Positions 22,172 through 63,224 of a stretch of DNA of 64,000 bases are shown here, piece after piece. The stretch covers positions 7,323 through 71,322 of the forward strand of contig CACXRO010000004.1 in the NCBI GenBank assembly GCA_902770045.1, in the 5' to 3' direction. Position numbers and translations under genes: made by a program. Under the pieces are notes generated by a model. The model saw only the letters and a list, made by a program, of their open reading frames with translations, was not told the origin of the DNA and did no database searches. Source of the DNA: an uncultured bacterium. Its GTDB lineage: Bacteria; Verrucomicrobiota; Kiritimatiellia; RFP12; UBA1067. Within the stretch, counting starts at the first letter, position 1, and the number at the start of each line of letters is the position of its first letter.

Positions 22172-22572
22172 CCGAACGACTCCGGCAGCAGTCCGGCGAG
22201 CGTGAATTCGCGCCAGGATGACTCCGACGAGGCCACGTAGACCTTGAAGTCGTCCGGCGCGGCGAATTCGCGCAACGTCTGGCGGCAGAGCCCGCACGGC
22301 GTGCAGTCCGCGGCGATGGAGTCGTCCGGTTTCAGCCCGGCCACGGCGACCGCCGCGAACCTGGTCTCGCCCTCCGCCACCGCCCGCGCCACCGCCGCGC
22401 GCTCGGCGCAGATTCCGCAGGGATACGACGCGTTCTCGACGTTGGCGCCGGTGTAGACGCGGCCGGACGCGGCGACGAGCGCCGCGCCGACGCGGAAGCG
22501 GGAGTAGGGCGCGTAGGCGCGCTTCGCCGCCGCCAGGGCGGCTTGGACCAGTTCCTGTGGGTTGGCTTCCAT
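22168..22572 (-). CDS. cdd: Cytidine deaminase
   Basis: AYAPYSRFRVGAAL..NVENASYPCGICAERAA..TPCGLCRQ (CAE / PCxxC zinc motifs). ATG 22572 chosen inside the longer ORF. Confidence 0.9.
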   Translation of the reverse strand: MEANPQELVQAALAAAKRAYAPYSRFRVGAALVAASGRVYTGANVENASYPCGICAERAAVARAVAEGETRFAAVAVAGLKPDDSIAADCTPCGLCRQTLREFAAPDDFKVYVASSESSWREFTLAGLLPESFG

Positions 22573-23432
22573 CAGAACGCCTCCGCCGCGTCGTTGACCC
22601 GCGCCTTGCGCTTCTCGGCGGCGTTTTTCCGTGCCTCGCGGCGGATCTCTTCCGCCTCCTCGGCCGCGGCGCGCAGCATGTTCTCGTCCCAGGCCACTAC
22701 CACCGTCTCGTAGTCGCGCGTCGCTCCCTCGAGCGCGGCGGTCACGTAGCGGTCGGAGCCGAGGTCGAAGGTGTAGACGGGCCGGCACCAGCTGCGCGGA
22801 CGCGCCCAGGTCTGGTAGCGTTTCTCCAGCGCCTCGATAAGGTAGTTGCGCCTCCAGCTCGAGCCGGAGTCCACCGCATTCTTCGCGCAGGCGTAGACCT
22901 TGACCGCGCGGTGCGTGGTGGGCGTCACGTAGACGTAGTAGTCGTTGAACCCGGCGAGAGCCTTCTTCGGCTTGAACGCGGTCCTGAGGAGCGTCGGTTC
23001 GGACGGGTCCTCGGCGAACTCGCCCTCCTTGACCTCGCTGCCGAACTTGACGCCCATGAACGAGTCGCAGTCGGCGGCGTTTTCAGCCTTGTCGACCTGC
23101 TTTGCGCCGTCTATCCGCCGCGAGAGCGAGGCGATCTCGCCGTCGCCGACGGGGTAGCTCTGGGCGTATTCGCTCGTCGAGCTTTCGAGCAGGTTGCCGT
23201 CCGCGTCGAGCGTGGTGCGCGTTTCGCGGCGGTGCTCCGTGACCATGTTTCCGTTGGTCGTCACCGTCGATTCGGTGAAGACGCGCGAGACCGAGCCGTT
23301 TTCGTTGGTGGTTATGCCAGACTCGGTGTTGGACGACGACGCGCTGGCACCCGACTCGGCGTAGAGCGCGGCGGCAAGCGCGATCATGGCGACTCCGCCG
23401 ATCGCGGTAATCTGGGTTATGCTGGTTTTCAT
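22572..23432 (-). CDS. Hypothetical secreted protein
   Basis: MKTSITQITAIGGVAMIALAAALYA signal peptide preceded by AAGGAAAGGAGAAACC. Stop overlaps the cdd start (TGATG). Confidence 0.6.
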   Translation of the reverse strand: MKTSITQITAIGGVAMIALAAALYAESGASASSSNTESGITTNENGSVSRVFTESTVTTNGNMVTEHRRETRTTLDADGNLLESSTSEYAQSYPVGDGEIASLSRRIDGAKQVDKAENAADCDSFMGVKFGSEVKEGEFAEDPSEPTLLRTAFKPKKALAGFNDYYVYVTPTTHRAVKVYACAKNAVDSGSSWRRNYLIEALEKRYQTWARPRSWCRPVYTFDLGSDRYVTAALEGATRDYETVVVAWDENMLRAAAEEAEEIRREARKNAAEKRKARVNDAAEAF

Positions 23433-23595
23433 GTTGGTTTCTCCTTTCCTTGTTTTCCCTCTTTCGAAGGAACGGTGCGTATTGTACCCTGCCGATGTTA
23501 ACGGATTGTCAATGAAACGCAGATTTCCAATTACCATCCAACCATCAATCTGCCGCGCAAAGTACCGCGGAAACCGCCGCGCAGCCAGACCGTGG

Positions 23596-23643
23596 CCTTT
23601 CAACCTTTCAACATTTCAACTTGTTTAACCAACCACCCAACCC
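23596..23643. repeat. Left island-flank repeat: 3 tandem octamers (C/A)TTTCAAC, then an AACCAACCACCCAACC tract
   Basis: Read directly: cctttcaacctttcaacatttcaac. This is the reverse complement of the GTTGAAAG arrays at 29732-29764 and 31737-31775. Confidence 0.8.
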
Positions 23644-23664: not shown

Positions 23665-23696
23665 TTGACTTTTGCGCCAAAATTTTCGTATAATAC
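23665..23696 (+). promoter_or_regulatory. Strong sigma70-type promoter TTGACT-18 nt-TATAAT
   Basis: TTGACT at 23665-23670 and cgTATAATAC with the hexamer at 23689-23694. No ORF with an RBS follows for about 530 nt. Confidence 0.65.
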
Positions 23697-23699
23697 ATT

Positions 23700-24175
23700 G
23701 CATCGCCGTTGCGAGTAAGTTGTTCGTGGCGGAGATGTGAGGGATAAAGCGCAGTTGGGATATGCGCAAGCCGCATGAGCGGCGTTGATCTTTGACATAG
23801 GCCGGAGACCCAGCATCCGGCTACCGAGCGGCAGAGTGTGCAATCACAAGTCTCTGCCGCGACCATCGTCCCGGTAGGGTCACGCGTCCCGCGTGACCGC
23901 CGAGGGCGGTGCCAGCGAGACCGAAAGGCCGTCGCTGGGACGTACGCAACAGCGTATTGAGCTTCTAGAGAAAACCGCTAATTTTCACTGCATGAAGCGA
24001 GATACGATTGCTGTGCTGCGTTGGTAATCCACGCGGCGCACTTTCTATTCATATTTCATGCAAGGCTCTTAGCGGTGCCTCTCTAGAGATGCGAATCAGG
24101 GAGTGCGCCGCTTCAATTGTATAAGGAGGGCGGCATTCCCGGCACGGATTGGAACGCCGCCCTCGTCCTTTTCCG
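23700..24175 (+). ncRNA. Candidate ~470 nt structured RNA or long regulatory leader (unclassified)
   Basis: Starts at the promoter and ends at a terminator-like hairpin. Complementary pairs read directly are listed here. GCGGCAGAG 23828-36 / CTCTGCCGC 23852-60. CGTCCC 23867-72 / GGGACG 23937-42, enclosing three hairpins (GGTCACGC/GCGTGACC, CCGCC/GGCGG, CCAGCGA/TCGCTGG). TCTAGAG+CCGCTAA 23964-81 / TTAGCGG+CTCTAGA 24069-88. TGCATGAA 23989-96 / TTCATGCA 24055-62. Pseudoknot GCGGCGCACT 24033-42 / AGTGCGCCGC 24102-11. Confidence 0.5.
24126..24175 (+). terminator. Intrinsic-terminator-like or attenuator hairpin
   Basis: GAGGGCGGC (24126-34) ... GCCGCCCTC (24156-64), followed by gtccTTTTcc. It lies between the structured RNA and the RBS (AAGGAGG) of the first island gene. 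Confidence 0.45.
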
Positions 24176-24226
24176 TGGAACACAAGGTGGGCTACAAGGG
24201 GAACCCTTTAAGGAGGTAGAAAAATT

Positions 24227-25804
24227 ATGAAGTGCGAAAATTGCGGTGCAGAGATCACCGACAAGATGAAGTTCTGCAGTGAATGCGGTACGCGTGTCCC
24301 AACTGATAAGGAGTGTCCGGCATGCCACACCCGGTGCGCTCTCGCGGCAAAGTTCTGCTCTGAATGCGGACATGATTTTTCAAAACTGGAGGAAATTGAA
24401 GAAGACACAGGCGACGATGACAATGACAGCGAAGAGGACACTTCTTCTAGTGGACACTACTCAGTCATACTGAAAGATTGTGGCGAGGACAAGGGCGCGG
24501 TGCTCAGGGATCTCGTTGCCATGACGGGTAAACGTCTTTGGCCGGACATCTCCGATATGGTAGATAATTTGCCTGCTGTCGTTGCCAAAGGTCTTACCCG
24601 AGACAAGGCAGATCTATATTATGGCGGATTGCTTCTTGATGGGGCTCAGGCCGAGATTGTCGCAGATGAAGATGGAGACGGCGATTCAGACGACGATGAT
24701 TCTTCTCCGGGCGAGCCATACCCGGAGATGGTGGATATCCCCGGACGTAACTTCAAGTTGGGCTGTACTCCGGTCACGCAGGCGCAGTGGGAAGCAGTGA
24801 TGGGGTATAACCCTTCTTATTTCACTTATAAAGGCGCGAACCGTCCAGTGGAGCAGGTCAGCTGGGACGATTGTCAGGAGTTCATCGAAAAGCTGAACGA
24901 GCAGACGGGGATGTGCTTCCGGTTGCCGACACAGAAGGAGTGGGAGTATGCCTGCCGCGCTGGCAGCAAGGGTGACTACGGTCTTGTGGAAGGTGGAGAG
25001 GAAGGCGACATCGACGACATGGGCTGGTATGACGGCAACAGTGACGACGAGACGCATCCCGTCGCGCAGAAACAGCCCAATGCATGGGGGCTCTACGACA
25101 TGCACGGCAACGTGTCGACATGGTGCGCAGACGCGTCCGGCCCGTCGAGCCACGTGGTTTGCGGCGGCGGATTCAACTTTGACGCCGGCAGCTGCACGGC
25201 TACGTATCGGAACGGATGCGAGTCAGATTGTAGCGATAACTGGATTGGTCTTCGCCTTGCGATGGATTGCGACTCAGACACGGACGATGACGAGTCCGAA
25301 GAAGAGGATTCGTCATCGGCCGGGAGCAGTCACAAAAGTCGTACCTGTTCGGTTTTCCTAAAGGATATCGGTAACGACAAAAACGCTGTGATCAGGGAAG
25401 TGCGTAGACTTTTCAACAAGACATTCGGAGAGGCGAAGAATCTGGTGGAAACGAACATTTCACCCATACCTCTTCATCTGGACTGTCTCCGCGAAAAGGC
25501 CGAAGAGATTGCCGCGGCGCTGGAGGCGGTGGGTGCCACCGTTGAGATCTCCGACAAGGACGTAGGGACTGTAACAAGCGGGAACTGCTCGGTCGTTATC
25601 AAGAAGCTCCCATTCATGATGGGGCGTGGAGACAGGATGGGGGTCGCTTGTATAATTGCCGAGGCTGAGGGATGTATGCCAGCCAACGCATGGAAGATGC
25701 TAGACAACCTCCCCTTGACTTTTGCAAAGAACATCTCCCGCGAAGAGGCGGAGGAAATCGCTTCTAAAATTGAGGCGAGAAAGTGCAAGGTCGAAATTGT
25801 CTGA
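24227..25804 (+). CDS. Double zinc-ribbon protein with three ribosomal L7/L12 C-terminal-like domains flanking an FGE/SUMF1 (C-type-lectin-fold) domain
   Basis: N-terminus CENCG..CSECG..CPAC..CSECG. Three segments align to the L12 CTD: SVILKDCGEDKGAVLRDLVAMTG..DMVDNLPAVVAKG..GAQAEIV; SVFLKDIGNDKNAVIREVRRLF..AKNLVE..AEEIAAALEAVGATVEIS; SVVIKK..NLPLTFAKNISREEAEEIASKIEARKCKVEIV. FGE motifs: RPVEQVSWDDCQEF, RLPTQKEWEYACRAG, GWYDGNSDDETHPVAQKQPNAWGLYDMHGNVSTW, IGLRLA. Confidence 0.8.
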   Translation: MKCENCGAEITDKMKFCSECGTRVPTDKECPACHTRCALAAKFCSECGHDFSKLEEIEEDTGDDDNDSEEDTSSSGHYSVILKDCGEDKGAVLRDLVAMTGKRLWPDISDMVDNLPAVVAKGLTRDKADLYYGGLLLDGAQAEIVADEDGDGDSDDDDSSPGEPYPEMVDIPGRNFKLGCTPVTQAQWEAVMGYNPSYFTYKGANRPVEQVSWDDCQEFIEKLNEQTGMCFRLPTQKEWEYACRAGSKGDYGLVEGGEEGDIDDMGWYDGNSDDETHPVAQKQPNAWGLYDMHGNVSTWCADASGPSSHVVCGGGFNFDAGSCTATYRNGCESDCSDNWIGLRLAMDCDSDTDDDESEEEDSSSAGSSHKSRTCSVFLKDIGNDKNAVIREVRRLFNKTFGEAKNLVETNISPIPLHLDCLREKAEEIAAALEAVGATVEISDKDVGTVTSGNCSVVIKKLPFMMGRGDRMGVACIIAEAEGCMPANAWKMLDNLPLTFAKNISREEAEEIASKIEARKCKVEIV

Positions 25805-25810
25805 TGTGTT

Positions 25811-25836
25811 GCCAACTCCGCCCGGCGGGTGCTGGA
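25811..25836 (+). promoter_or_regulatory. Conserved post-stop hairpin motif, copy 1 (CCAACTCCG-CCCGGC-GGGT-GCTGGA)
   Basis: One of three near-identical motifs that each follow a stop codon in the island. Stem CCGGC/GCTGG with one G-T pair. Confidence 0.55.
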
Positions 25837-25870
25837 TGCGGAGGAGGTGACGTGAAAGAAGGGAAAGATT

Positions 25871-26107
25871 ATGTTGGATAACAATCAAGACGGCCCAGAC
25901 GAAAACATACGAATCATGCCGAAGGATGTGTTCGCAAATTATAGTAACTCTGATTTACATCGGATACAGAAAGCGATTATCGATTGGGATGTTATGGTTG
26001 ATAAACATCCTGAACTGGAGAAACTCTACGAGACGTATGGTGCGGATTATGAGAAGTTAAAACGGGACATCATAGATGAACTTAAGCGACGCGCGCTCAG
26101 TTCGTAA
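25871..26107 (+). CDS. Hypothetical small protein (78 aa, helical)
   Basis: GAAAGAAGGGAAAG purine-rich RBS upstream. AT-rich codon usage like its neighbours. No recognisable domain. Confidence 0.5.
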   Translation: MLDNNQDGPDENIRIMPKDVFANYSNSDLHRIQKAIIDWDVMVDKHPELEKLYETYGADYEKLKRDIIDELKRRALSS

Positions 26108-26129
26108 AAAACAAAAGGGAGATCAAGCG

Positions 26130-26390
26130 ATGACTTTTACAGAGTGGTTTGAAAGTCTGGACATTCGTGGCAATATCGATGAGATATTTTGTCTGTATCG
26201 CACGGTTCTAGAACATAGTGACACCTGGGGATATGATGTCAAGGTTACTCCACATAGTTTTGTGGTCTCTCGTTACGACATAGAACCGCACCGATTTACA
26301 GAAAAGACGGCAAGTCAGTTTTGTGACTATCTAGATTCCTTGTTTGAATCTGGGGTCGAGGGAGAACATTATCGGGTTAATGGGAAATGA
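26130..26390 (+). CDS. Hypothetical small protein (86 aa)
   Basis: ATG 26130 preceded by AAAGGGAG. The longer ORF from 26076 would overlap the previous gene. No recognisable domain. Confidence 0.5.
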   Translation: MTFTEWFESLDIRGNIDEIFCLYRTVLEHSDTWGYDVKVTPHSFVVSRYDIEPHRFTEKTASQFCDYLDSLFESGVEGEHYRVNGK

Positions 26391-26431
26391 GGTCCACTGA
26401 TAGTGGTTACCGTGCTGATACGGGCATTTTT

Positions 26432-26457
26432 ACCAACTTCGCCCGGCGGGTGCCGGA
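26432..26457 (+). promoter_or_regulatory. Conserved post-stop hairpin motif, copy 2 (CCAACTTCG-CCCGGC-GGGT-GCCGGA)
   Basis: Stem CCGGC/GCCGG with loop GGGT. Confidence 0.55.
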
Positions 26458-26505
26458 AGCAGGGATGGTGAAAACAAAAAGTAAACACCACAAAGGAAAC
26501 AAAGC

Positions 26506-26793
26506 ATGAAAAGAATTCTTGATGGACATGATTTGACTTATTCTCAAATGAATGGATTGTCTTCTCTTTTCGGCGAGCCTGGACGTGCAATGCCTGTTAC
26601 TAATAATAAGTTAAGAGAAACAGGAATGTCAGAGGATGAGGTGGAGGATCTTGTAAATAAAGGATATTTAGAACTTCTTACCAATGGTGATTATCTTTTG
26701 CCTAGAGATACATGTGGGAATGTTATCATATCTAGACTGACGGAGCGGGGAAACGACGAAAGAATTCGACAAATGAATTCAAGAATGTTTTGA
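26506..26793 (+). CDS. Hypothetical small protein (95 aa)
   Basis: AAAGGAAACAAAGC upstream of the ATG. No recognisable domain. Confidence 0.5.
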   Translation: MKRILDGHDLTYSQMNGLSSLFGEPGRAMPVTNNKLRETGMSEDEVEDLVNKGYLELLTNGDYLLPRDTCGNVIISRLTERGNDERIRQMNSRMF

Positions 26794-26941
26794 TCGCTAA
26801 TCTTGTACAAGGAGGTGCAATTTGACACTTCAATCCAAGGCTGTTCGCGAAACAGATTCTTTACTCAGATTCTTTACTCCGACTGGGGGCATGCAAACAA
26901 AAATATAGAGGCGAAAATCTCTAAAAGAAAGAGGAGTTGGA

Positions 26942-27175
26942 ATGAAATTAGTGTCATACTCATATGAATTAGACGGGCACACACATTGTTTGTATGTTGA
27001 TGAGGATTTCGCGGATTCTCTGTTGCCTCCAGAGGTAAAGACAATTACAGCGGGCCGGACAAAGGCGGCGTGTAGTGGGTCTATCAGGTTTGATCCAAAG
27101 GATAAAGAGTCCCTCCAGAAGAAAGGTTATCTGGACACGGGTCACTACTTCATAGAATCAGAGGCGGATTTATAA
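26942..27175 (+). CDS. Hypothetical small protein (77 aa)
   Basis: AGAGGAG SD 6 nt upstream. No recognisable domain. Confidence 0.5.
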   Translation: MKLVSYSYELDGHTHCLYVDEDFADSLLPPEVKTITAGRTKAACSGSIRFDPKDKESLQKKGYLDTGHYFIESEADL

Positions 27176-27181
27176 TGCTTT

Positions 27182-27207
27182 TCCAACTCCGTTCGGCGAA
27201 TGCCGAA
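27182..27207 (+). promoter_or_regulatory. Conserved post-stop hairpin motif, copy 3 (CCAACTCCG-TTCGGC-GAAT-GCCGAA)
   Basis: Perfect 6 bp stem TTCGGC/GCCGAA. The C->T / G->A changes relative to copies 1-2 are compensatory. Confidence 0.55.
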
Positions 27208-27254
27208 TAAGGAGACTAATCTTACAACGACAATAAAAAAAGAAAGAGGTTGGT

Positions 27255-29234
27255 ATGAGCAAGACGAAAACATGCCCTAAATGTGGTGGAAGCGGTATGC
27301 TTGACCATTGTGGACGATGCAATGGGTCTGGCAAGGTGACGTGTAGCACGTGCGGCGGATCAGGAGAAATAAAAGATAGCTGCAGAGCCTGCAATGGGAC
27401 TGGTAAGATTACGAAAACAAGGCTGAAAAATTGCTCTCAGTGTCATGGGGCGGGACAAATATATTTAGACACATATTTAGACCATCGTTGGATCAGCTGT
27501 GGGAAATGCGGTGGAAGCGGACAGGTGGAGGATGAGTACGATGAAGTCTGCCCAAATTGTAATGGAACTGGAGATTTTGGCTCGGGACGAGGATGCTCGG
27601 ACTGCAATGGAACTGGCGAAGTAATCTGTCCAAGCTGTGGTGGCAATGCGCATAAACCGTCCACCTGTGATAGATGTGACGGTTCAGGAGAAGTTGAAGT
27701 ATATACATCTTCCTCATCCTCTTCGTCTGAAGAAGGGAAATGGTGGGAATATGTCCTTGGGCTTCTTATATTGATTGCGCTTTGCTGGGGTGGATGGCGC
27801 GGTTACAAATGGCTATTTGGGGAGCGCGGCGGTAGCGAAGTCATCACGGAAGCCGAGATTATGGAGAAGTGGCAGGAGCATCTCGAAAAGAGGCGTGATG
27901 CTTTTGATGATGGCTTGCCCGAAAAGGAGATCGAAGCAAAGGGGCTAAAAAACTACACTTGGGACGAGTGGCAGGAGAAGTTCAAGAAGGAGCATGAAGC
28001 ACCGGCGAAGCAAGAGGGTTCTGACAAAACAAGGGCGCAGGAAATTGGCGAGCAGGCACTTTCCACGGCAAAAGATCTTGGCGACAAGGCGAAAGGGTTG
28101 TGGCAAAGTATCACAGCCAAGGAAGAGAAGGATCCAGAAGCCGAACTGAAAAGACTCAATGCGCGTCTTGCGGAGTTGGAGGGTCGCAGCAATAGTGGTG
28201 AGACGACTGATGTGGAGAACATCGGAGAAAAATATAGAGAGCATCAACGGAAGCGAAGCGAATTGCTTATGAGCGGGCTTACTGATAGGCAACTTGACGC
28301 GATGGGGTATGCTGACTATACTTACAATGGGTTTAAAAAGAACTACAAGAATATAAAATACAAGACACTGGAAGAGATTCGGCAGGACAGTGAGTCTTCT
28401 GCAAGGCCTGTTGTGGTTCCAGAGAAGACAGCGGAGCCAAAAGATGCAACGTCGAGCACAACGGCTGAGGCGGTAGCGAGGGCGAAGGTGGCTGCCGAGG
28501 ACAAGTCCAAGGCGGAGGCAGAGGCGAGGGCCAAGGCCGAGGCAGAGGCAAAACGACTTGCTGAGAAGTTGGCGCGCAAGGAAGCCGAAGAGAAGGCACG
28601 GGCCGAAGAGCAGGCAAGGGCGAAGAAAAAGGCAGAAGCCAAGGCTAAGGCTGAGGCAGAGGCGAGGGCTAGAGCAGAAGCCGAGGCAAAACGACTTGCT
28701 GAAGAATTGGCGCGCAAGGAAGCCGAAGAGAAGGCGCGGGCCAGAGAGGAAGCACGTGCAAAAATCCAGGCGGAAGATAGGGCTAAAGCTGAAGCTGAGG
28801 CGAAAGCTCGTGCCACGGCGGAGGCTATCGCAAAGGCGGAAGTAAATGCGGATGCCTCTGTCGAACCTGAAGGTTCTGCAGTTGGACAGCAAGACGGTGA
28901 TATGCATAAAGCATCAAAGGATTCGAAAGGTATACGTATCGTAGTCCAGGGAAAGGGCAAGACGAAGGATGCTGCGGTGCGCTGGGCAATTCGTGATGCG
29001 GTGTGGAAAACCGTCGGCAAATGGGTGGATTCAAAGGCTCGGATTCAGGAGAATCATGACAAGGTTGTTGCCCAGGTGAAGACAATCACCGAAGCCGACG
29101 TTGCCAAGTTTGAGGTGATGGACACTCAGATGCAGGACGGCGGTTTTGTCGTCAAGGTGAGAGTCTCTGTCTCGAAGAAGAAGATCGCGCCGAAGTTTGC
29201 GGAAATCTTCCCTGATGTGTTTGGCAATGAATAA
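27255..29234 (+). CDS. Protein with ten DnaJ-type CxxCxGxG zinc-finger motifs, one TM helix, a long Ala/Glu/Lys coiled coil and a C-terminal alpha/beta domain
   Basis: [78 protein letters not shown]. Poly-Ser, then [21 protein letters not shown]. TolA-like [18 protein letters not shown] repeats. The C-terminus [29 protein letters not shown].. is tentatively LPP20-like. Confidence 0.75.
28512..28787 (+). repeat. Tandem ~138 nt duplication inside the coiled-coil coding region
   Basis: [38 protein letters not shown].. is repeated as [38 protein letters not shown]... The copies start at 28512 and 28650. Confidence 0.85.
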
Positions 29235-29268
29235 TAAAAGTAGTGAATGAGAAAAGGAGTTGAATAAA

Positions 29269-29676
29269 ATGAAAAAGCTGATTAAAGGTGTTGTACTCAT
29301 TGTCGCGGCGATTCTGATGCTCGGCATCGTTGGATGCGGAGACGGAGATTCGGCGGACAGCATCGCGGAAAAGTGTGTTGATTGCTTAAAGGAGGCAGAC
29401 TTCGACGGCATGCGGCAGATGTCAACGGGCGGCATGATTCAGTGGATAGACGTTGCCGAACGGAAATACGACGAAATCGCCAGATTGCTAGGCGAGAAGA
29501 CTGCGTCCAAGTTCAGGGAGACATACGACGAATTGAAATACGAGCTTGGTGGCGTCCCTGACGGTGACACCAAGGTGATTGTGCCAGTCAGGATCAACGG
29601 ACAGGATACGCCGATGACTCTCATCAAGCTGGGCGGCAAGTGGAGAATCGAGAAGTTCGACTTCCCGATCATATAG
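29269..29676 (+). CDS. Small lipoprotein (DUF4878-like)
   Basis: AAGGAG SD 9 nt upstream. Lipobox LGIVGCG. The ending KLGGKWRIEKFDF is typical of small NTF2/cystatin-like lipoproteins. Confidence 0.65.
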   Translation: MKKLIKGVVLIVAAILMLGIVGCGDGDSADSIAEKCVDCLKEADFDGMRQMSTGGMIQWIDVAERKYDEIARLLGEKTASKFRETYDELKYELGGVPDGDTKVIVPVRINGQDTPMTLIKLGGKWRIEKFDFPII

Positions 29677-29690
29677 GCCATTTCTGCATT

Positions 29691-29728
29691 GCGCGGGGAC
29701 AGTTCCTTTGAACGGGACTGTCCTGCGC
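29691..29728 (+). terminator. Terminator-like stem-loop after the lipoprotein gene
   Basis: GCGCGGGGACAGT ... ACTGTCCTGCGC (about 11 bp, one bulge). No clear U-tract. Confidence 0.35.
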
Positions 29729-29731
29729 ATT

Positions 29732-29764
29732 GTTCAAAAGTTGAAAAGGTATATTTGAAAGGGG
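29732..29764. repeat. GTTGAAAG-type octamer repeats (internal island copy)
   Basis: gttcaaaagttgaaaaggtatatttgaaagggg. Same orientation as the right-flank copy. Confidence 0.6.
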
Positions 29765-29778
29765 ATAAGGTTCGATAG

Positions 29779-31575
29779 TTGGCAAGCAAATGCGACAAAT
29801 GCGGGAAACTCGTTCCTGACGGTGAGGCGTCTTGTCCCCATTGCGGAACGAAGATCGAAATGGACAATCTTGCAGTAGGTTGTCTTTTCGTGCTTGGTTT
29901 GATTGGCCTTCTCTATCTTATTTTTAAACATTGGCAAGTGATCATTCTTGTTGCCGCTGTTTTGCTTGTTGCGGGGATATGCTATGCTGTCATAAAAAGC
30001 ACTAAAAGTGAAGACGGCAATGATGAAAACCCAGGGGAAGGTGCGGATAAGGAAGGTCAAAGCACAGAGCCCGATAAGGTTGACGAAAGCGGCTCGTCGG
30101 CATGGCCTGAATTCGCTTCCGAGGTTGTAGAGGCGTCTGAAAGCCTGTATTCGGCCTTGTTGAAGATGTCGGGCGACGCGCCTTTTATCGCTACATTGGA
30201 AGCGACTGACTGGTTGGATTTGGGCGGCGAATGGTCGATGAACAACCGTTTGTGCGCACTTGCGCAAATCGACATGTTCAACGTCCTGAGGTTGCTCGGG
30301 CATGATGACATCGAGGAGAGCAAGGAGGGCTTGGCTTGCGCCTACATCGTGACCCGACTGAGTGCGGCAGCCGGTCAGAACATTGATACCTTCACTGCTG
30401 GATACAAGACCAATGAGTCCATGGCAAGGCAATTGGCTAAGATTGCTGAAGAGACAAGGCGTGTTCTCAGTCCGCTGATGGAGAGATGGCGTTCTTCCGT
30501 TCCAAGCGAGAAGAGTTTCTATTCTGCGGTGGTTACATTCTTTGTCGCGAAATGCAATCAGCCGGAGTTGTCGCTAAACTATTTGCGTTCGCTATATCAA
30601 TGGGCTTCTGTGATTGCGAAGGCCGATGGTTCGGTCAGTGATGCCGAGGCAAAGAGCCTTGCGGCAATCATGAAAGCGCATGATGCGGCTAAATCGCCTG
30701 TCGGGAGAACAAGTGTTTCGGGCGGCGAGACGGGCGCGACAGAGAAATGCCAGGCGACGTCTTTTGCGCGAGACGAAGATCCATTCCAGAAACTTGAAGC
30801 GTTGATTGGACTCGCGCCGGTAAAGAACGAGATTATGGCGCTTGCGAATTTCGTTAAGATACAAAAGCAGCGAGTCGATGCCGGCATGAAGGCGGTGCCT
30901 GTTTCATACCATTGTGTTTTTACGGGGAATCCAGGAACCGGGAAGACCACGGTCGCCCGTATCGTCGCCGGGATATACAGGGATTTGGGCGTGCTTGCAA
31001 AAGGCCATCTTGTGGAGACGGATAGGTCGGGACTTGTTGCGGAATATGTCGGTCAGACAGCCGTCAAGACCAACAAAGTGATTGACAATGCGATAGATGG
31101 CGTCCTTTTTATAGACGAAGCATATACGCTTGCTCAAGCCGGGGGGAATGATTTTGGGATGGAGGCTATCGCCACTTTGCTCAAACGCATGGAAGACGAC
31201 CGCTCCAGGCTCGTTGTGATCCTCGCCGGTTATTCTGGCGAGATGGAAACATTCATAGAAGCCAATCCCGGGTTGCGGTCGCGATTCAACAGGTACATAG
31301 ATTTCCCCGACTATAGTGCGGAAGAACTTGTTCAGATATTCATGTCTTTGGCTGAATCCAACGAGTATGACTGCGACGATAGTCTTGCATCGGAGATTCA
31401 CAAGGTTATGGTTAAAACTATCAGGCAGGAAGACGAGAATTTTGGCAATGCCAGATTTGTCCGGAACCTTTTCGAGAAAAGCATCCAGAAGCAAGCGATC
31501 CGTCTTTCAAAGGTTGCGCCCATCACGAACAAGATGCTTCGAACACTTACTGCCGATGATTTACCCTCAGTATAA
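29779..31575 (+). CDS. Zinc-ribbon / 2-TM / TerB-like / AAA+ ATPase (CbbX-SpoVK-type)
   Basis: CDKCG..CPHCG. Two TM helices. [30 protein letters not shown] is a TerB-like motif. AAA+ motifs: Walker [10 protein letters not shown], Walker [27 protein letters not shown] start. Confidence 0.8.
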
Positions 31576-31736
31576 TGAGCAGCAGCTCCAGGGGTTCGCG
31601 CGCATTTGCGTCAACCCGTAGTTCTTCCTGTCGAAAAAGTACAATAGGCAAAAAGGGACAGACCCACCTATATATGTTTTACTGTATATGCTTGACGGCG
31701 GGGAGGCGATGTAAAAGTTCCGCGGCAGATAAACAG

Positions 31737-31904: not shown

Positions 31905-34900
31905 TCAAGCCCGCGCCGCGTGCCACTCCTGCAGCGAGCGGGGCGGCACGGCTTTCGACGAGGCGGTTGCCGCCATGCCGCGCACCGCCTCGGCGAAGCC
32001 GGCGAGCGTCGTCGTGACCGGAACACCCGCGAGCGTCGCTGCCGTGCGTATCTTGACGCTGTCGTGCGCGGCGCTTTCGCCGTCCTCGCGCGTGTTGACG
32101 ATCCACTTCACCTTGCCGCGCCGGATGAGGTCGAGCGTGTTGGGGCTGCCGAGCGGAATCTTGTAGAGGGCGTTCGATTCGATGCCGGCTTTCCAGAGCG
32201 CCGTGGAAGTGCCGCGGGTCGCCCAGATCTCGTAGCCGAGCTTGTCCAGCGTCTTGGCGAGCTCAACGACCTCGGCCTTGTCTTCGTCGCGGATGCAGAG
32301 GACGATTCCGCCATGCCCCGGCAGCGGCAGCGGGCTCCCCGCCGCGATCTGGCTCTTGTAGTAGGCCGTCGCCGCGTCCGCGCCGAACGCCATCACCTCG
32401 CCGGTCGACTTCATCTCCGGCGTCAGCGTGATGTCCGCGCCCGGGAACTTCACGAACGGGAACACCGCCTCCTTGGCGCAGAAATATGGTTTGGTAGTTT
32501 GGTGGTTAGGTGGTTTGGTGGTTTGGTGGTTAGGTGGTTGGGTGGTTAGGTGGTTGGGTGGTTGGGTGTGTAGCCGCTCTCCGACCATGCACCTTGCGGC
32601 GGTGCCGGCGAGCGACCAGCCGACCGCCTTCGAGACAAATGGCACGGTGCGCGAGGCGCGCGGGTTCACTTCGATCATCCACACCTCGCCGTCCTTGACC
32701 GCCAGCTGGATGTTCATGAGCCCGCAGACGTTGAGCTTCTCCGCGAAAGTGCGCGCGATGCGCTCGACCTCGGCGATCGTCTTCGCCGAGAGCGACACCG
32801 GCGGCGTGACCGCGGCGGCGTCGCCGGAGTGGCATCCCGCAGCCTCGACGTGCTCGAGGATCGCGCCGACGACGCAGGTCTTGCCGTCCGCGACGCAGTC
32901 GACGTCGAGCTCGATTGCGTGGGTGAGGAACTTGTCGATGAGGATGGGGCGGCCTTCCGAGATCTTTACCGCCGCCTCGACGTATTCCCGGAGCCGGTCC
33001 TCGTGGTAGACGATCGCCATGCCGCGTCCGCCGAGGACGAAGCTCGGGCGCACGAGGATGGGATAGCCGATCTCCCCGGCGATCTTCAGGGCGTCCTCGA
33101 CGGAGTGGGCGATTCCGCTCGGCGGCTGCTTCACGCCCACCTCGTTGACGAGGGCGCGGAAGAAGTCGCGGTCCTCGGCGAGCGCGATGTCGTGGGGCGA
33201 CGTTCCGAGGACGTTCACGCCTGCCTCGGCGAGGCGCTCGGCGAGGTTGAGCGGGGTCTGGCCGCCGAACTGGACGATCGCGCCATCGCACCGCTCGCGC
33301 TCGTAGATCTCCATCACGTCCTCGAAGGTGAGCGGCTCGAAGTAGAGCCTGTCGGAGGTGTCGTAGTCGGTCGAGACGGTCTCGGGGTTGGAGTTGACCA
33401 TCACCACCTCGATGCCCATCTTGCGGAGCGCGAAAGCCGCGTGGCAGCAGCACCAGTCGAACTCGATTCCCTGGCCGATGCGGTTCGGCCCGCCGCCGAG
33501 GACCATGATTTTATGTTTCTGCCGCAAAGTACGCAAAGAGCGCAAAGGACGTTCTGTCTTTGCGTTCTCTGCGTTCTCTGCGGCTAACGAATAATATGAA
33601 TAATAATACGGCGTTTTGGCTTCGAATTCGCCGGCGCAGGTGTCGACTTCGCCGAACTCGGGGCGGATGCCAAGGGCAAGGCGATTCTTCCGCACCGTAA
33701 TCTCGTCGGTGCCGATCGCCGCGGCGATCTCCTTGTCGCTGAAGCCGAACGCCTTCGCCTGACGAAGGACTTCGGGCCTTAGCATATTTGTGTTTTTGCC
33801 GCAAAGATCGCAAAGGTCGCAAAGTGGTTCAGGGTGAGTGGAGTCTGAACTTGTCTTTGCGTTCTCTGCGTTCTTTGCGGCTAAAAAATGGCCACCAAGA
33901 TATTCCCTGAAAGCTTCGATTTCATCGAGCTCGCGCTTGAACCACGGGTCGAAGCCCGACGCGTCGTGTCCCGCGAGCGGCGCCTCCAGCGACCTGACCG
34001 CCTTCAGGTATGCCTGCTTGAAGGTGCGGCCGATGGCCATCGCCTCGCCGACGGACTTCATCTGGGTGCCGAGGCGCCTGTCGGCGCCCGGGAACTTCTC
34101 GAAGGTGAAGCGCGGCACTTTTACGACCACGTAGTCGAGCGCGGGCTCGAAGCAGGTCGGAGTCACCTGGGTTATGTCGTTCTTGAGCTCGTCGAGCGTG
34201 TAGCCGACGGCGAGGAGCGCGGCGATCTTGGCGATCGGGAAGCCAGTCGCCTTCGACGCGAGCGCGGACGAGCGCGAGACGCGCGGGTTCATCTCGATGA
34301 TGATGCGCCGGCCGGTCTTCGGGTTGACCGCCCACTGCACGTTGGAGCCGCCGGTCTCGATGCCAATCTTCTCGAGAACGCGGATGGAGTCGTCGCGCAT
34401 CGCCTGGTATTCGCGGTCGGTCAGCGTCTGGATCGGCGCGACGGTGATCGAGTCGCCGGTGTGGACGCCCATCGGATCCATGTTCTCGATGGAGCAGACG
34501 ATCACGGCGTTCCCCGCCTTGTCGCGCATCACCTCCATTTCGAATTCCTTCCAGCCGATGAGCGACTCCTCGATCAGCACCTCGTGGTTGAGCGACGCCT
34601 CCAGGCCGCGCGAGACGATCTCGCGGAACTCGCCCTCGTCGTGCGCGATGCCACCGCCGGTGCCGCCGAGGGTGAAGCCGGGGCGGATGATGAGCGGCCA
34701 CGAGCCGATCTCCGCCGCGATCCGCTGCGCCTCCTCCGGCGAATGGGCGCTCCCCGACTTCGGCATGTCGAGTCCGAGCTCCGACATGGCGGCCTTGAAG
34801 AGGTTGCGGTCCTCGGCGCGCGCGATGGCCTCGGCGTTCGCGCCGATCATCTCGACGCCGCATTCGGCGAGGACGCCGGACTTCGCCAGCCCCGTTGCCA

Positions 34901-35189
34901 CGTTGAGCGCGGTCTGTCCGCCAAGCGTCGGGAGCAGCGCGTCCGGGCGCTCCTTGCGGATGATCGCGGCGACGGAGTCGACGGTCAGCGGCTCGATGTA
35001 GGTCGCCTCGGCCATTTCCGGGTCGGTCATCACCGTCGCCGGATTGGAGTTCGCGAGGACGATTTCGAATCCCTCGCGCCGCAGCGCCTTCACCGCCTGG
35101 CAGCCCGAGTAGTCGAACTCGCAGCCCTGGCCGATGACGATCGGACCGGAGCCGATGATCAATATCTTTTTCAGGTCGGTGCGCTTCAT
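31905..35189 (-). CDS. carB: Carbamoyl-phosphate synthase large subunit (with three in-frame repeat insertions)
   Basis: [29 protein letters not shown].., second ATP-grasp half [22 protein letters not shown].., MGS-like C-terminus. ATGA overlap with the pyrG stop. Confidence 0.93.
32488..32568. repeat. GGTTAGGT/GGTTGGGT/GGTTTGGT octamer array (about 10 units) in frame in carB
   Basis: Translated on the minus strand as [28 protein letters not shown]. Confidence 0.9.
33519..33586. repeat. CGCAAAG nonamer hairpin element in frame in carB
   Basis: ctgccgcaaagtacgcaaagagcgcaaagg-acgttctg-tctttgcgttctctgcgttctctgcggc. Translated as [24 protein letters not shown], just before the conserved [13 protein letters not shown]. 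Confidence 0.9.
33796..33883. repeat. CGCAAAG nonamer hairpin element in frame in carB
   Basis: ttgccgcaaagatcgcaaaggtcgcaaag-(30 nt loop)-ctttgcgttctctgcgttctttgcggcta. Translated as [30 protein letters not shown]. Confidence 0.9.
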
Positions 35190-36922
35190 TTCCGCTTCCT
35201 GCCTTTCAGCGCCGCCGCGACGAGGCCGAGGAAGAGCGGGTGCGGGGCGGTGGGGCGGCTCTTGAACTCGGGGTGAAACTGGCCGGCGATGAAGTACGGG
35301 TGCGACGGCAGTTCGACGATCTCCACGAGCTTGCCGTCGGGCGAAAGGCCGCTTACCTTGAGCCCGGCCGCCTCGAGCCTTTCGCACGCCTCGCTGTCGT
35401 AGGCGAGCTCGTAGCGGTGGCGGTGTCGCTCGGAGATTGTCAATGTTCCATTTTTAGCCACAAAGGACACAGAGTTCACAGAGTCTTTGTGCTCTTTGTG
35501 TTCTTTGTGGCTATAGAGTTTATCGGCGAGAGTGCCGCGCTTGATGACGCAGGGATAGGCGCCGAGGCGCATGGTGCCGCCTTTCTGGGTGATGCCGCGC
35601 TGTTCCTCCATGAGGTCGATGACCGGATGCGTTGTGTGCTCGTCGAACTCCGTCGAGTTGGCGTCCGCCCATCCGAGCACATCGCGGGCGTATTCGATCA
35701 CCGTGCACTGCATGCCAAGGCAGATGCCAAGGAAGGGGATCTTGTGCTCGCGCGCGTACTTGATCGCCGCGATCTTGCCCTCGACGCCTCTTGATCCAAA
35801 GCCCCCCGGAACCAGAATGCCGTCGATGTTTGATAATTTTTTGCCACAAAGATCACAAAGGCCACAAAGTCTTTTCCCGCTCTTTGCGTTCTCTGTGTTC
35901 TTTGTGGCTAAAAGTTCTTCCGATTCGATCGGCACGACCACCACCTTGCAGTCGTTCGCCATGCCGGCGTGCTGCAGCGCCTCGTGGATCGACTTGTAGG
36001 CGTCGCGGATGGCGATGTACTTGCCGACGAGCGCGATGCGGCAGTGCTTCTTCGGCTGCGTCGCCTTCCTGACGAGCGTGTCCCAGACGGTGTGCTTCAC
36101 CGGCCAGATGTCGAGGTGGAGCTGCCGCAGGACCTGCTCGTCGAGTCCCTGCTTCCTGAGCTCCCGCGGCACCGCATAGACCGAGTCGGTCACGTCCTGC
36201 TCCTCGATCACGCACTCGGGCCTCACGTTGCAGAAGAGGGCCAGCTTTTGCTTGTGCTCCTCGGGAATCGGCATCTCCGTGCGGCAGACGAGGATGTCGG
36301 GGATGATGCCGATGTTGCGGAGCTGTCCCACCGAGTGCTGCGACGGCTTGGTCTTGAGCTCGCCCGCGGCCTTCAGGTAGGGGACGAGCGTCAGGTGCAC
36401 GAAGCAGGTGTTCTCGATGCCCTCCTCGAAGCGGAACTGCCGCGCCGCCTCGAGGAAGGGGAGCGACTCGATGTCGCCGGAGACGCCTCCGATCTCGCAG
36501 AGGACGATGTCGCAGTCGTGGTTGCCGGCGTCGTGGATCGCCGCCTTGATCTCGTCGGTGATGTGCGGGACGACCTGCACCGTACCGCCGAGGTACCCGC
36601 CCGCGCGCTCGCGCGCGAGGACGGCGGAGTAGATGCGGCCCGAGGTGTAGTTGGACGCCTTGGTGCAGGTGACGCCGGCGAAGCGCTCGTAGTGGCCGAG
36701 GTCGAGGTCGGTCTCCGCGCCGTCGTCGGTCACGAACACCTCGCCGTGCTGGTAGGGCGACATAGTGCCGGGGTCGACGTTGAGGTACGGGTCGAGCTTC
36801 TGCATGAAGACCTTGTAGCCGCGCGACTTGAGAAGCAGCGCGAGCGAAGCCGAGGTGATTCCCTTGCCGAGCGAGCTCACGACGCCGCCTGTGATGAACA
36901 CGTATTTGACTTGCTTTTTCAT
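35186..36922 (-). CDS. pyrG: CTP synthase (with two in-frame repeat insertions)
   Basis: [55 protein letters not shown]. Confidence 0.93.
35455..35513. repeat. CACAAAG nonamer hairpin element in frame in pyrG
   Basis: tagccacaaaggacacagagttcacagag-tctttgtgctctttgtgttctttgtggcta. Translated as [22 protein letters not shown]. Confidence 0.9.
35841..35910. repeat. CACAAAG/CGCAAAG nonamer hairpin element in frame in pyrG
   Basis: ttgccacaaagatcacaaaggccacaaag-tcttttcccg-ctctttgcgttctctgtgttctttgtggcta. Translated as [24 protein letters not shown]. Confidence 0.9.
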
Positions 36923-58530: not shown

Positions 58531-59339
58531 CCGCTGCGGTCCTGCTGGCCGCCGCCGCGCTGGTGGCCGCCTCGGCCGCCGGCCCGGCCGGGCGCGGCGC
58601 GCCGACGTTTACGGACGAGTTCGACGGCGCCGGGCTCGACGCGCAAGTCTGGAGCGACTGGGAGGCGTCTTTCCAGGGCCGCCGCGCAGGGTTTCTTTTC
58701 GCCCGGGACAATGTCGCGGTCTCCAACGGATGCCTCAACCTGACCGCGCGGCTGCTGCGCACGGACGAGAAGACGGTGGAGAATCTCCGCCGCGGCTTCG
58801 ACACCTACGCCACCGCCTATGTTCGCCGCCGCGAAAAGAGCTTCTACGGCTACTACGAGTGCCGCGCTCGGACGATGGACTCGAAGGTGTGCAACGCCTT
58901 CTGGCTCTACGACCCGCTCTCCGACCAGCCCGAACGCAAGTTCCGCGTCGGCGACGTCTCGGAGGAGATCGACATGTTCGAGATCTTCGGCTCGTTGCGC
59001 GAATGGTACGGTACGGTCCACTGCCTTAAGACGCCGTATCTCGAGGGAATCGTCCACGGCGGGGTGGAGAAACTGCCGGAGAAGTCGAAGAAGGTGGCGC
59101 TCGATTTCAATCCCGCCGCGGAGTTCCACGTCTATGGCTTCCTCTGGTCCCGCGACCGCCTCGCCTGGTACATCGACGGCAAGGAGGTCTTTTCGCGCGC
59201 GAACGACCGCTTCCACCGTCCGCTCCACGTCACCTTCGACTGCGAGATCATGTACACCTGGGTCGGCGAGCCCGACCGCACCCGCCTCCCGCAGGTCTAC
59301 TCCATCGACTACTTCCGCCACTGGTCCAGTCCGGAATGA
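58527..59339 (+). CDS. Secreted GH16-family glycoside hydrolase
   Basis: Ala-rich signal peptide. Catalytic-type motif SEEIDMFE (ExDxxE). ATGA overlap with proS. Confidence 0.7.
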   Translation: MTAAVLLAAAALVAASAAGPAGRGAPTFTDEFDGAGLDAQVWSDWEASFQGRRAGFLFARDNVAVSNGCLNLTARLLRTDEKTVENLRRGFDTYATAYVRRREKSFYGYYECRARTMDSKVCNAFWLYDPLSDQPERKFRVGDVSEEIDMFEIFGSLREWYGTVHCLKTPYLEGIVHGGVEKLPEKSKKVALDFNPAAEFHVYGFLWSRDRLAWYIDGKEVFSRANDRFHRPLHVTFDCEIMYTWVGEPDRTRLPQVYSIDYFRHWSSPE

Positions 59340-59446
59340 TGGCATAGTCTCTGCTAGTGCAGTGGGCATGCCTAATCCAAACAGCCTGTCGCTAAGGATC
59401 GAACAGCATATTGTCCGGTCACGATTTGAACATAGTATTCAGAATA

Positions 59447-59457
59447 TGATAAAATAC
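59447..59457 (+). promoter_or_regulatory. Extended -10 promoter TGATAAAATAC
   Basis: About 35 nt upstream of ATG 59494, which has a GGGAGG SD. Confidence 0.4.
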
Positions 59458-59493
59458 GCGTCAGCCAATCGAACGAGAAAGGGAGGTGGCGCG

Positions 59494-61002: not shown

Positions 61003-61016
61003 GGTGGGGTTTGTTT

Positions 61017-61045
61017 CCCGCAGAGACGCAGAGTCGCTGAGAGGA
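61017..61045. repeat. GCAGAGAC-family repeat, ending in the SD of the next gene
   Basis: cccgcagagacgcagagtcgctgagagga. The ATG at 61054 follows 8 nt later. Confidence 0.85.
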
Positions 61046-61053
61046 GTTTCTAA

Positions 61054-61995: not shown

Positions 61996-62004
61996 GTTTA
62001 TATC

Positions 62005-62036
62005 TCCCGCAGAGACGCAGAGGCGCAGAGAGGAGG
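62005..62036. repeat. GCAGAGAC-family repeat (left arm flanking the GxxExxY gene), supplies the SD
   Basis: tcccgcagagacgcagaggcgcagagaggagg, followed by tagatATG at 62042. Confidence 0.9.
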
Positions 62037-62041
62037 TAGAT

Positions 62042-63192: not shown

Positions 63193-63224
63193 TATATGGA
63201 ATTGAACAGGAAAGGATTTTTGCA

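Follow-up and report, generated by a model that had tools for sequence, protein, structure and literature searches.

A foreign, hairpin-partitioned gene island with a strict F-G membrane pair in a Kiritimatiellae-type bacterium: a possible defence-like cassette array

Do eight co-oriented genes that stand together in an uncultured gut or rumen Kiritimatiellae-type bacterium form one system, and what might such a locus do for its host? The genes, here called A to H, lie in a 64,000-nucleotide (nt) stretch of contig CACXRO010000004.1 (positions 7,323 to 71,322; this whole stretch is called the window), and a first reading made from the letters alone, the sequence-only reading, had proposed that they act as a single eight-gene system. 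We find instead that the locus is a horizontally acquired island of foreign composition, in which A and the small genes B to E are present or absent as cassettes that end at hairpins, F and G are strictly adjacent, and H is their frequent but dispensable companion. We tentatively regard the island as a defence-island-like cassette array combined with a novel F-G-H envelope module, a reading to which we give slightly less than an even chance. Its genes and the repeats between them are as follows.

24227-25804, plus strand: gene A, cassette 1, 525 amino acids (aa)
25809-25850, plus strand: cassette-junction hairpin repeat, copy 1, after the stop codon of A
25871-26107, plus strand: gene B, a 78-aa helical protein
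26131-26390, plus strand: gene C, 86 aa from an ATG after a GGGAG ribosome-binding site, or 104 aa if read from 26076
26430-26471, plus strand: cassette-junction hairpin repeat, copy 2, after the stop codon of C
26506-26793, plus strand: gene D, 95 aa, with weak AbiEi-N-like winged-helix similarity (E ~5e-4, below the cut-off)
26942-27175, plus strand: gene E, 77 aa, without a family, travelling with D
27180-27221, plus strand: cassette-junction hairpin repeat, copy 3, after the stop codon of E, diverged and with compensatory stem changes
27255-29234, plus strand: gene F, a CxxCxGxG membrane protein
29260-29676, plus strand: gene G, a lipoprotein of 135-138 aa with a signal peptide and the lipobox IVGC
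29779-31575, plus strand: gene H, TTG start, 598 aa

All eight open reading frames (ORFs) are indeed co-oriented, as had been stated before, and together they occupy a patch at about 23.5-31.8 kb in which the GC content is 45-55%, compared with 64-70% on either side of it in the 64-kb window and with 66-70% for the genome. At third codon positions, the GC fraction of the island genes is 0.39-0.68 versus 0.8-0.97 for the host genes. The closest metagenome-assembled genomes (MAGs; 94-95% nt identity) have the left flank in common up to position 23528 only, where synteny is lost; beyond it they contain neither the island nor carB, which belongs to the carB/pyrG-type housekeeping genes of the right flank. 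The host genes beside the sister islands differ from island to island. Because of this contrast in composition, the lack of the island in the closest MAGs and the changing host neighbours, we conclude that the locus is a horizontally acquired accessory island of about 8 kb, in which conservation with sister islands reaches from about 23749 to 31580-31644. Every large ORF and most of the small ones have homologues in independent metagenomes, showing that the ORFs are not chance products.

Which genes travel together was read from about 25 distinct F loci from related metagenomes, whose gene content we compared. G stands directly downstream of F in every locus that reaches past F. H follows directly after G in about 14 loci and, in L090, after an insert with radical SAM and amidohydrolase genes; it is absent from the F-G loci L087, L096/L103, L097, L099 and L102. 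In two independent metagenomes, H carries the same CAA-to-TAA nonsense codon at residue 218 (L088:11828-13624 and L089:4736-6532) with F and G intact, so that H must be dispensable, at least in that lineage. Gene A is found in five or six of the loci; it is present in the window, L087 and L088, and as a shortened form with a zinc ribbon and two L12 domains in L090 and L116. A, F and G are adjacent in L087, and A precedes F-G-H in L088. Elsewhere, the slot upstream of F is filled with unrelated genes (f6 and f17; a 215-aa protein, a 195-aa protein, an FRG protein and radical SAM enzymes). The presence of B-C and of D-E varies independently between islands. H, the terminal gene of the homology block, is also the most conserved island gene with 95-98% aa identity between islands; identity to the window is 95-96% for H, 70-88% for G, about 81% for A and 48-71% for F. 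F-G is hence the only invariant unit and H a frequent but dispensable companion. Since A is scarce and occurs elsewhere without F, G and H, since H is dispensable and since the head of F is replaceable, the three large genes A, F and H are not one unit. The neighbourhood conservation that the sequence-only reading had anticipated does exist, being strict for F-G and usual for H, but its triad of a zinc ribbon-L12-FGE protein, a CxxCxGxG protein and a TerB-AAA+ protein is not co-inherited. The picture of one eight-gene system is not supported, the small genes being swappable cassettes and A being confined to a minority of the loci.

The borders of these cassettes are marked by a hairpin repeat of about 40-42 nt, TTTACCAACTCCGCCCGGCGGGTGCCGGATGCGGAGG, of which we collected 23 distinct copies in 16 sister loci. 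The copies are always on the plus strand and lie just past the stop codon of the last gene of a variable unit. The repeat folds into a hairpin whose 11-bp stem has a bulge of 2 nt and whose loop reads GGGT; 90.5% of the cells pair, compared with at most 49% in slid controls, and double changes occur at two pairs. In L088, which is without B-C, the gap falls exactly between two hairpin copies. The repeat is absent from 780 kb of other Kiritimatiellae DNA and is, as judged from these comparisons, specific to this island family. An assignment as integron attC site was rejected on inspection of the 23 aligned repeats, which contain neither an R'' (RYYYAAC) nor an R' (GTTRRRY) box, and neither the window island nor the gene tables of the sister loci hold an integrase or recombinase domain. 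Homologous recombination alone might account for the exchange of cassettes; alternatively, the hairpin might act as a signal in the RNA. For the cassette genes B, C, D and E no family could be assigned with Pfam or PADLOC. B has homologues of 142-155 aa with an N-terminal hydrophobic segment in the sister islands L090 and L097 and in those of the L104 type; C has no homologue among the other islands sampled. The D-E pair is present in L088, L089 and L101, and a sequence search of D against the PDB gave nothing.

Family searches bear out most of the domain content that had been proposed for the large proteins. A, F and H begin with zinc-binding modules (zinc ribbons and, in F, nine CxxCxGxG fingers), A carries three L12 C-terminal domains (CTDs) and an FGE domain above the Pfam cut-offs, G is a lipoprotein by its signal peptide and lipobox, and H belongs to the SpoVK/CbbX-type AAA+ proteins with AAA and AAA_lid_6 above the gathering scores. 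For the invariant pair we obtained the following picture. The nine CxxCxGxG motifs of F (DnaJ_CXXCXGXG, E 1e-11) span aa 7-145. A putative transmembrane (TM) segment at about aa 163-183 was read from the sequence and stays under the Kyte-Doolittle cut-off, while homologues have clear TM helices at that place. It is followed by a conserved juxtamembrane motif, a KAEAEA-rich, TolA-like helix and a C-terminal domain at about aa 558-659. The helix varies in length among F homologues, and in the window it contains a 138-nt tandem duplication (28463-28738, 79% identity). An AlphaFold2 model of the C-terminus, built from a 58-sequence alignment with a predicted local distance difference test (pLDDT) score of 78, shows a beta-alpha-beta-beta unit, for which the best Foldseek matches in the PDB are Helicobacter pylori HP1454 (E 2.8e-3), a Campylobacter motor periplasmic scaffold, FlgT and Lpp20; Pfam gives neither an LPP20 nor a FlgT match for F. 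We also considered F as a TolA protein and rejected this, as TIGR02794 scores 38.3 bits against a cut-off of 59.45, mostly over the low-complexity helix, and there are no Tol genes nearby.

The head of F is replaceable: other F proteins carry different Cys-rich heads, or none. In P0180, a lipoprotein signal and an FGE domain take the place of head and TM segment and are fused to the periplasmic part of F, which is consistent with a periplasmic F tail. We infer a TolA-like topology with the head in the cytoplasm and with helix and tail in the periplasm. Some F proteins contain one or two additional copies of the F-type C-terminal domain, which is present in secreted neighbours as well. In L096 (8474-17295) and L099, both without H, genes for five or six secreted proteins or lipoproteins stand behind F-G; several of these proteins carry an LPP20/FlgT-like domain and one a weak FlgT_N match, and the gene sets suggest a larger periplasmic assembly. 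About 60 clusters make up the F family, all of them unnamed and from metagenomes, and a single one of 185,579 species-representative genomes, a goat Kiritimatiellae MAG, contains the family. A sequence search of G against the PDB returned nothing.

The third member of the module, H, consists of a zinc ribbon (aa 4-25, Zn_Ribbon_1), a hydrophobic stretch at residues 26-76 that we read as two TM helices (a hairpin at about 31-76), an all-alpha domain at about 106-325 and an AAA+ domain with AAA_lid_6 at about 340-598. Its membership in the clade is clear from AAA (PF00004; 72.5 bits versus 21.2) and AAA_lid_6 (PF17866; 62.2 versus 24.3). The best NCBIfam matches are SpoVK (1.7e-90), EccA (4e-78) and CbbX (2e-67), yet H is none of these three proper, because its scores stay under the equivalog cut-offs (302.6 versus 422.95, 263.3 versus 466.65 and 227.5 versus 459.25 bits, respectively). 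Walker A, Walker B, the pore loop YVGQT and the motifs GLRSRF and GNARF are all intact, and the ATPase is apparently active. Given the end-to-end alignment with SpoVK, EccA and CbbX and the intact catalytic and pore-loop motifs, H likely threads or remodels a protein partner; its N-domain and ATPase would lie on the cytoplasmic side of the membrane. Genes similar to H (61% identity) are also found on their own, beside a PIN toxin-antitoxin pair.

A TerB domain, which the sequence-only reading had assigned to H, could not be substantiated. Whole H has no Pfam match to TerB (PF05099) at E <= 0.1. Fragments reach 13-14 bits (cut-off 24.4) at E 0.05-0.11 over a 23-residue 'AKADGxVxxxE' motif, with AKADG at residues 280-284, whereas the TerB model has about 118 positions. 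A profile of the domain (seven sequences) found no PDB chain at E <= 10, and the AlphaFold2 model of the N-domain, an all-alpha bundle with pLDDT 69, has no Foldseek match at E < 0.1 in the PDB or BFVD. The domain is confined to a handful of relatives and is duplicated in versions of 825-868 aa. We therefore treat H ~106-325 as a new helical domain with one TerB-like motif.

Cassette A encodes a double zinc ribbon (aa 1-53, DZR/Zn_Ribbon_1 above the Pfam thresholds), a first L12 CTD (77-144), the FGE domain (159-345) and two further L12 CTDs (375-441 and ~455-525), joined by acidic linkers; neither a TM helix nor a signal peptide was found. The three L12 stretches match Ribosomal_L12 (PF00542) with E 5e-25 and 88 bits against a cut-off of 25.9, and L7/L12 chains in the PDB match them at E 3e-5 to 9e-4. 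Full-length bL12 has an N-terminal dimerisation and L10-binding domain and about 120 aa. A is not such a protein: TIGR00855 gives 70 bits versus 84.4 and covers model positions 51-124 only, within a protein of 525 aa with other domains. Non-ribosomal arrays of three to seven tandem L12 CTDs, collected as library matches of window positions 25262-25801 (P0365-P0392), have 130 representatives at E <= 1e-3 among 1.8 billion proteins, some of them combined with DZR, with LRV/HEAT repeats or with PNP_UDP_1 and pentapeptide repeats; judged by these matches, they form a small protein class of their own. The idea of a link of the locus to translation would come solely from the L12 CTD homology of this non-obligatory cassette.

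The FGE domain of A (FGE-sulfatase, PF03781; E 6e-30, 105 bits versus a cut-off of 23.3) has as its closest solved relative TvpA, a non-enzymatic variable protein of a diversity-generating retroelement (DGR), at E 5e-19 compared with about 1e-6 for true FGEs. We rejected A as a DGR target, since there is no reverse transcriptase domain in the island and no second DNA copy of the variable region (VR) equivalent in the 64 kb. Three A orthologues hardly differ in the VR-equivalent region, and no other part of A is conserved as well as the lectin domain. The full architecture is confined to about 12 protein clusters. A-like genes stand alone in L008. The 79 generic FGE loci that were fetched with A hold no homologues of F, G, H or B-E, an uninformative result, as most of them matched the FGE domain only. 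In L118-L121 (e.g. L118:5439-17609) we noted a conserved co-oriented cluster without F, G and H, whose members have A-like N-terminal zinc-ribbon heads in common: a zinc ribbon-Peptidase_C25 protein, an 870-aa DZR protein, a DZR-L12(-FGE) protein, a 406-aa zinc-ribbon protein and a 1270-aa FGE protein. This cluster adjoins genes for GmrSD and an S-AdoMet lyase.

All cassettes lie downstream of a long leader, with a promoter-like element further upstream.

23749-24226, plus strand: structured leader RNA, 478 nt, upstream of A, with its core at about 23930-24110
23665-23694, plus strand: sigma-70-like hexamers TTGACT-18-TATAAT, an 11/12 consensus match only

The DNA of the leader is 81-90% conserved although the first genes downstream differ between islands. 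Its minimum free energy is -219.5 kcal/mol (z = -7.95), and 13 of the 52 core pairs show compensatory changes among five sequences, including a diverged copy in L010 from another MAG. The 3' end consists of a GC-rich hairpin (24126-24164) and then a U-rich tract (24165-24175); this terminator-like arrangement leaves about 50 nt to the ATG of A. None of the 4227 Rfam covariance models matched at the gathering score; the best E values, 0.24-10, belong to miRNA and snoRNA noise. With a 20-nt pattern from the leader core we found at least nine further MAG loci (L164-L172), confirmed by nhmmer, eight of which are labelled as Kiritimatiellia, Lentisphaerae or 'Verrucomicrobia' gut MAGs. In other MAGs the core heads varied low-GC accessory operons, many of them for secreted or lipoproteins, and the L010 copy (L010:8146-8303) lies upstream of a protein with five FGE domains. 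The leader is thus a candidate for a new class of cis-regulatory RNA without Rfam counterpart. With respect to the single strong promoter that had been claimed for the eight genes, the sigma-70 consensus match holds; it is, however, separated from A on the upstream side by about 530 nt, which include the leader of about 470 nt, and is not part of the block that the islands have in common.

At its edges, the island carries a second kind of repeat, which is listed here together with the flanking host genes.

22572-23432, minus strand: secreted host protein, left flank
23595-23620, minus strand: GTTGAAA-repeat motif, left copy, consisting of GTTGAAAGGTTGAAAGGC and a further copy that overlaps it, situated at the left GC transition and inverted relative to the right copy
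29732-29749, plus strand: GTTCAAAAGTTGAAAAGG motif, 47 nt ahead of H (TTG start), conserved in the corresponding position in L088, L089 and L090
31738-31786, plus strand: GTTGAAA-repeat motif, right copies, at the right GC transition, before the 3' end of carB (31905)
31905-35387, minus strand: carB-like gene, right flank, with its 3' end at 31905

GTTGAAA(N)GTTGAAAGG repeats have four matches in the 64 kb versus 0.03 expected, and the sites are the island edges and the position upstream of H only. The copy upstream of H is kept in sister islands, but the edge copies are not; transposon ends were rejected as an explanation, since the edge motif was not found at the edges of sister islands. Candidate roles of the repeats are those of an operator, an iteron or an element end. 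The translation of the carB-like gene contains unusual low-complexity inserts (repeated 'AENAENAKT' and a second repeated stretch). Furthermore, the window has a second low-GC patch (58819-63833, GC 45-61%) with genes for a sigma-54 activator and then for RhuM/Fic, PDDEXK_3, Macro-domain and PIN7 proteins; it seems to be a further islet of the accessory or toxin-antitoxin type.

What might the island do? Its gene company points to a conflict role, as context and not as proof. An AAA_14/DUF4143 ATPase in a sister island matches PADLOC model PDC-S01 (5.5e-50), an FRG protein matches PDC-S15 (2e-21), and the best PADLOC matches of a 483-aa radical SAM protein are the viperin models (pVip, 1.4e-16). 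ParE/Phd, PIN, HipA-like and TerB_N/TerB_C genes are neighbours of various sister islands, with TerB_N and TerB_C adjoining one of them. As the sequence-only reading had it, the locus is a genuine membrane-associated accessory module that matches no named system, and the Pfam and PADLOC searches returned most of the expected domains and no specific defence system. Shango, to which the locus had been likened, comprises SngA (TerB), the ATPase SngB and the helicase SngC. With the TerB assignment failing, this analogy falls away; no PADLOC Shango model was matched by the nine ORFs of the locus, which contains no helicase. IetAS pairs the ATPase IetA with the subtilase-like protease IetS. It was rejected as well, because the IetA models match weakly (33 bits, AAA core), NCBIfam IteA reaches 28.9 bits versus a cut-off of 510 and there is no protease gene.

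Several observations weigh against a defence array with an F-G-H module. PADLOC gave nothing for all nine ORFs of the window locus beyond weak generic AAA matches (IetA, TRIP13, DolB), the locus has no recognisable effector, as had been noted before, and the pVip match in the sister island may reflect the radical SAM core only. The sister islands are all close relatives (H 89-95% nt identity), so that synteny may reflect recent common descent more than functional coupling, and the statistics are thin because the F family is so rare among species genomes. H is absent or nonsense-bearing in about one third of the informative F-G loci, and H-like and A-like genes also stand alone. For the C-terminus of F, the similarity in fold is weak (TM-score 0.38). 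Finally, the LPP20/FlgT-like secreted proteins of L096 and L099 fit an envelope-structure role as well as defence.

With these points in mind, the array reading would work as follows. The leader of about 470 nt, with its terminator-like end, would be an expression platform for the modules downstream, namely the cassettes A, B-C and D-E, each closed by a hairpin, and then the constant 3' module F-G-H. The upstream cassettes, A among them, would be interchangeable genes for defence or counter-defence that collect at this site and work largely independently; A combines a TvpA-type ligand-binding lectin fold with an L12 CTD array that could bind translational GTPases or merely multimerise. F would be a bitopic protein, whose periplasmic helix and LPP20/FlgT-like domain pair with the lipoprotein G, and H a membrane-tethered AAA+ ring that binds a partner or substrate through its novel helical N-domain. 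In the least certain part of the proposal, F-G-H would sit in the membrane and, assisted by ATP, sense or remodel the envelope as a module of conflict or defence. A bolder version joins all parts: F-G-H as an undescribed envelope-spanning, AAA+-powered conflict system that ends an integrase-less defence-cassette array under a new leader RNA class. Here F-G-H would consist of a TolA-like sensor or transducer, whose periplasmic domain is of the LPP20 type, its lipoprotein partner and a membrane-tethered unfoldase; the array would be a hairpin-delimited, shuffled defence library that includes L12 CTD decoys or binders of translational GTPases; and the leader would drive accessory operons in Kiritimatiellia, with processive antitermination through the hairpins between the cassettes as one possible mechanism. 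As a whole, this version seems doubtful to us.

A serious rival, although we think it unlikely, is a non-defence envelope module, in which F-G, with the other LPP20/FlgT-like proteins, is a periplasmic scaffold or tether, or part of a surface or secretion structure, H is an EccA/SpoVK-like assembly chaperone and the cassettes are cargo or unrelated hitchhikers. The TolA-like layout of F with its LPP20/FlgT/HP1454-like C-terminal domain argues for it, as do the same-fold-type secreted and lipoproteins behind F-G in L096 and L099, the secreted and lipoprotein operons headed by the same leader RNA in other MAGs and the secretion chaperone EccA among the closest named relatives of H. However, F-G-H is sporadic, low in GC, variable in position and almost absent from species genomes, and PADLOC candidates and toxin-antitoxin genes surround it; it includes no part of a channel, secretin or transporter, and H is often missing. 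Somewhat less probable still is one integrated eight-gene system, in which A as a sensor or translation-factor binder, F and H act together, perhaps via their N-terminal zinc ribbons, with the small proteins as accessories. It would explain why the genes are co-oriented and tightly spaced behind one leader, why A, F and H each begin with a zinc-binding module and why A accompanies F-G in L087 and F-G-H in L088; P0180, in which an FGE domain is joined to the periplasmic portion of F, can be counted in its favour too, but this FGE domain is located in the periplasm and A is without an export signal. Against such a system stands the census described above, with A mostly replaced by unrelated genes, B-C and D-E varying independently and the zinc-finger head of F swapped or lost, together with A-like genes that stand alone or in clusters without F, G and H.

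Two further explanations appear to us very improbable. A membrane protein paired with a lipoprotein is typical of phage exclusion systems, and together with the foreign composition this would fit a prophage or satellite remnant for superinfection exclusion, in which the two block DNA entry. A prophage module, which the sequence-only reading had named as a possible refutation, was looked for: PHROGs returned matches only for the FGE, zinc-ribbon and AAA domains, the island and its immediate neighbourhood are free of structural, integrase and replication genes, and neither the profile of the F C-terminus nor G has viral relatives in 2.9 million viral contigs (IMG/VR). Just as improbable is a locus for the maturation and export of, or immunity to, a peptide akin to ribosomally synthesised and post-translationally modified ones, with the small proteins as precursors or immunity factors and F-G-H for export or self-protection. 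The inserts beside F-G in L090, L093, L100 and L101 (radical SAM/SPASM, a second radical SAM, an amidohydrolase and ORFs of 80-100 aa) are of the expected kind. The window island, however, is without a modifying enzyme and B-E are without precursor-like features; the radical SAM units behave as another type of cassette, and the 483-aa one scores best against viperin models.

If the array reading is correct, uncultured and barely studied gut and rumen Kiritimatiellae carry a compact accessory-gene 'library' with an integron-like layout but no integrase, which would offer a new angle on the shuffling of defence genes. F-G-H would then be a candidate for a new membrane-level mechanism of defence or envelope remodelling, driven by an AAA+ protein of the SpoVK/CbbX class, a clade for which, to our knowledge, almost no bacterial substrates have been defined. 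Additionally, the leader is a well-supported new structured RNA, and the non-ribosomal L12 CTD arrays are an unexplored protein class that may touch translation factors.

How does the island compare with known systems? F-G-H, the leader RNA and the junction hairpin have no described counterparts, and we found no matching description in the literature on L12 CTD or SpoVK-type defence systems. FGS (FGE-like) and L12/ClpS domains have been described in NTP-dependent conflict systems by Kaur, Burroughs, Iyer and Aravind in 2020 (PMC7159879). There, non-enzymatic FGE/C-type-lectin domains stand beside an AAA+-type NTPase in diversifying accessory loci, and some Bacteroidetes proteins of those systems have inserted L12/ClpS domains (PMC7159879); in this combination of domains the island is similar. 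In contrast to them, the island has no vWA, MoxR, STAND or GTPase core and no DGR, its AAA+ is from another clade, the lectin domain of A is the most conserved part of the protein and the membrane pair F-G has no counterpart there. The likeness to Shango and TerB consists of the one 'AKADGxVxxxE' helix-loop motif in H and of the TerB_N and TerB_C genes that adjoin one sister island; TerB is undetected by family threshold, profile or fold, and neither the Shango helicase nor its ATPase is present. Integron cassette arrays stockpile phage-defence genes (bioRxiv 10.1101/2024.07.02.601719; PMC12614218). The island resembles them in its one-directional, small, promoterless and swappable units, each closed by a hairpin repeat and placed below a common expression region, and in the defence candidates held by the sister arrays. 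It differs in having no integrase and a shorter repeat (~40 nt) that is nearly identical between cassettes and lacks attC boxes.

The F-G-H module also sets itself apart from its named relatives. Unlike SpoVK, CbbX and EccA, H is anchored in the membrane via its zinc ribbon and two TM helices, and it has a novel helical N-domain where EccA has TPR and CbbX has no N-domain. With the LPP20/FlgT/FlgP/HP1454 scaffolds, F has in common the C-terminal fold, which is repeated in neighbouring secreted proteins; this similarity is at the fold level only and comes without flagellar context. F is built like TolA/TonB-type proteins, with a membrane anchor at the N-terminus, then a long helix rich in Lys, Ala and Glu, and finally a small globular domain at the C-terminus. 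That domain, however, resembles LPP20/FlgT/HP1454 rather than TolA domain III, and TolQ/R or ExbB/D partners are missing. In their place, F has a cytoplasmic zinc-finger head, a small lipoprotein as its partner and, as the adjoining energy source, an AAA+ protein instead of a proton channel.

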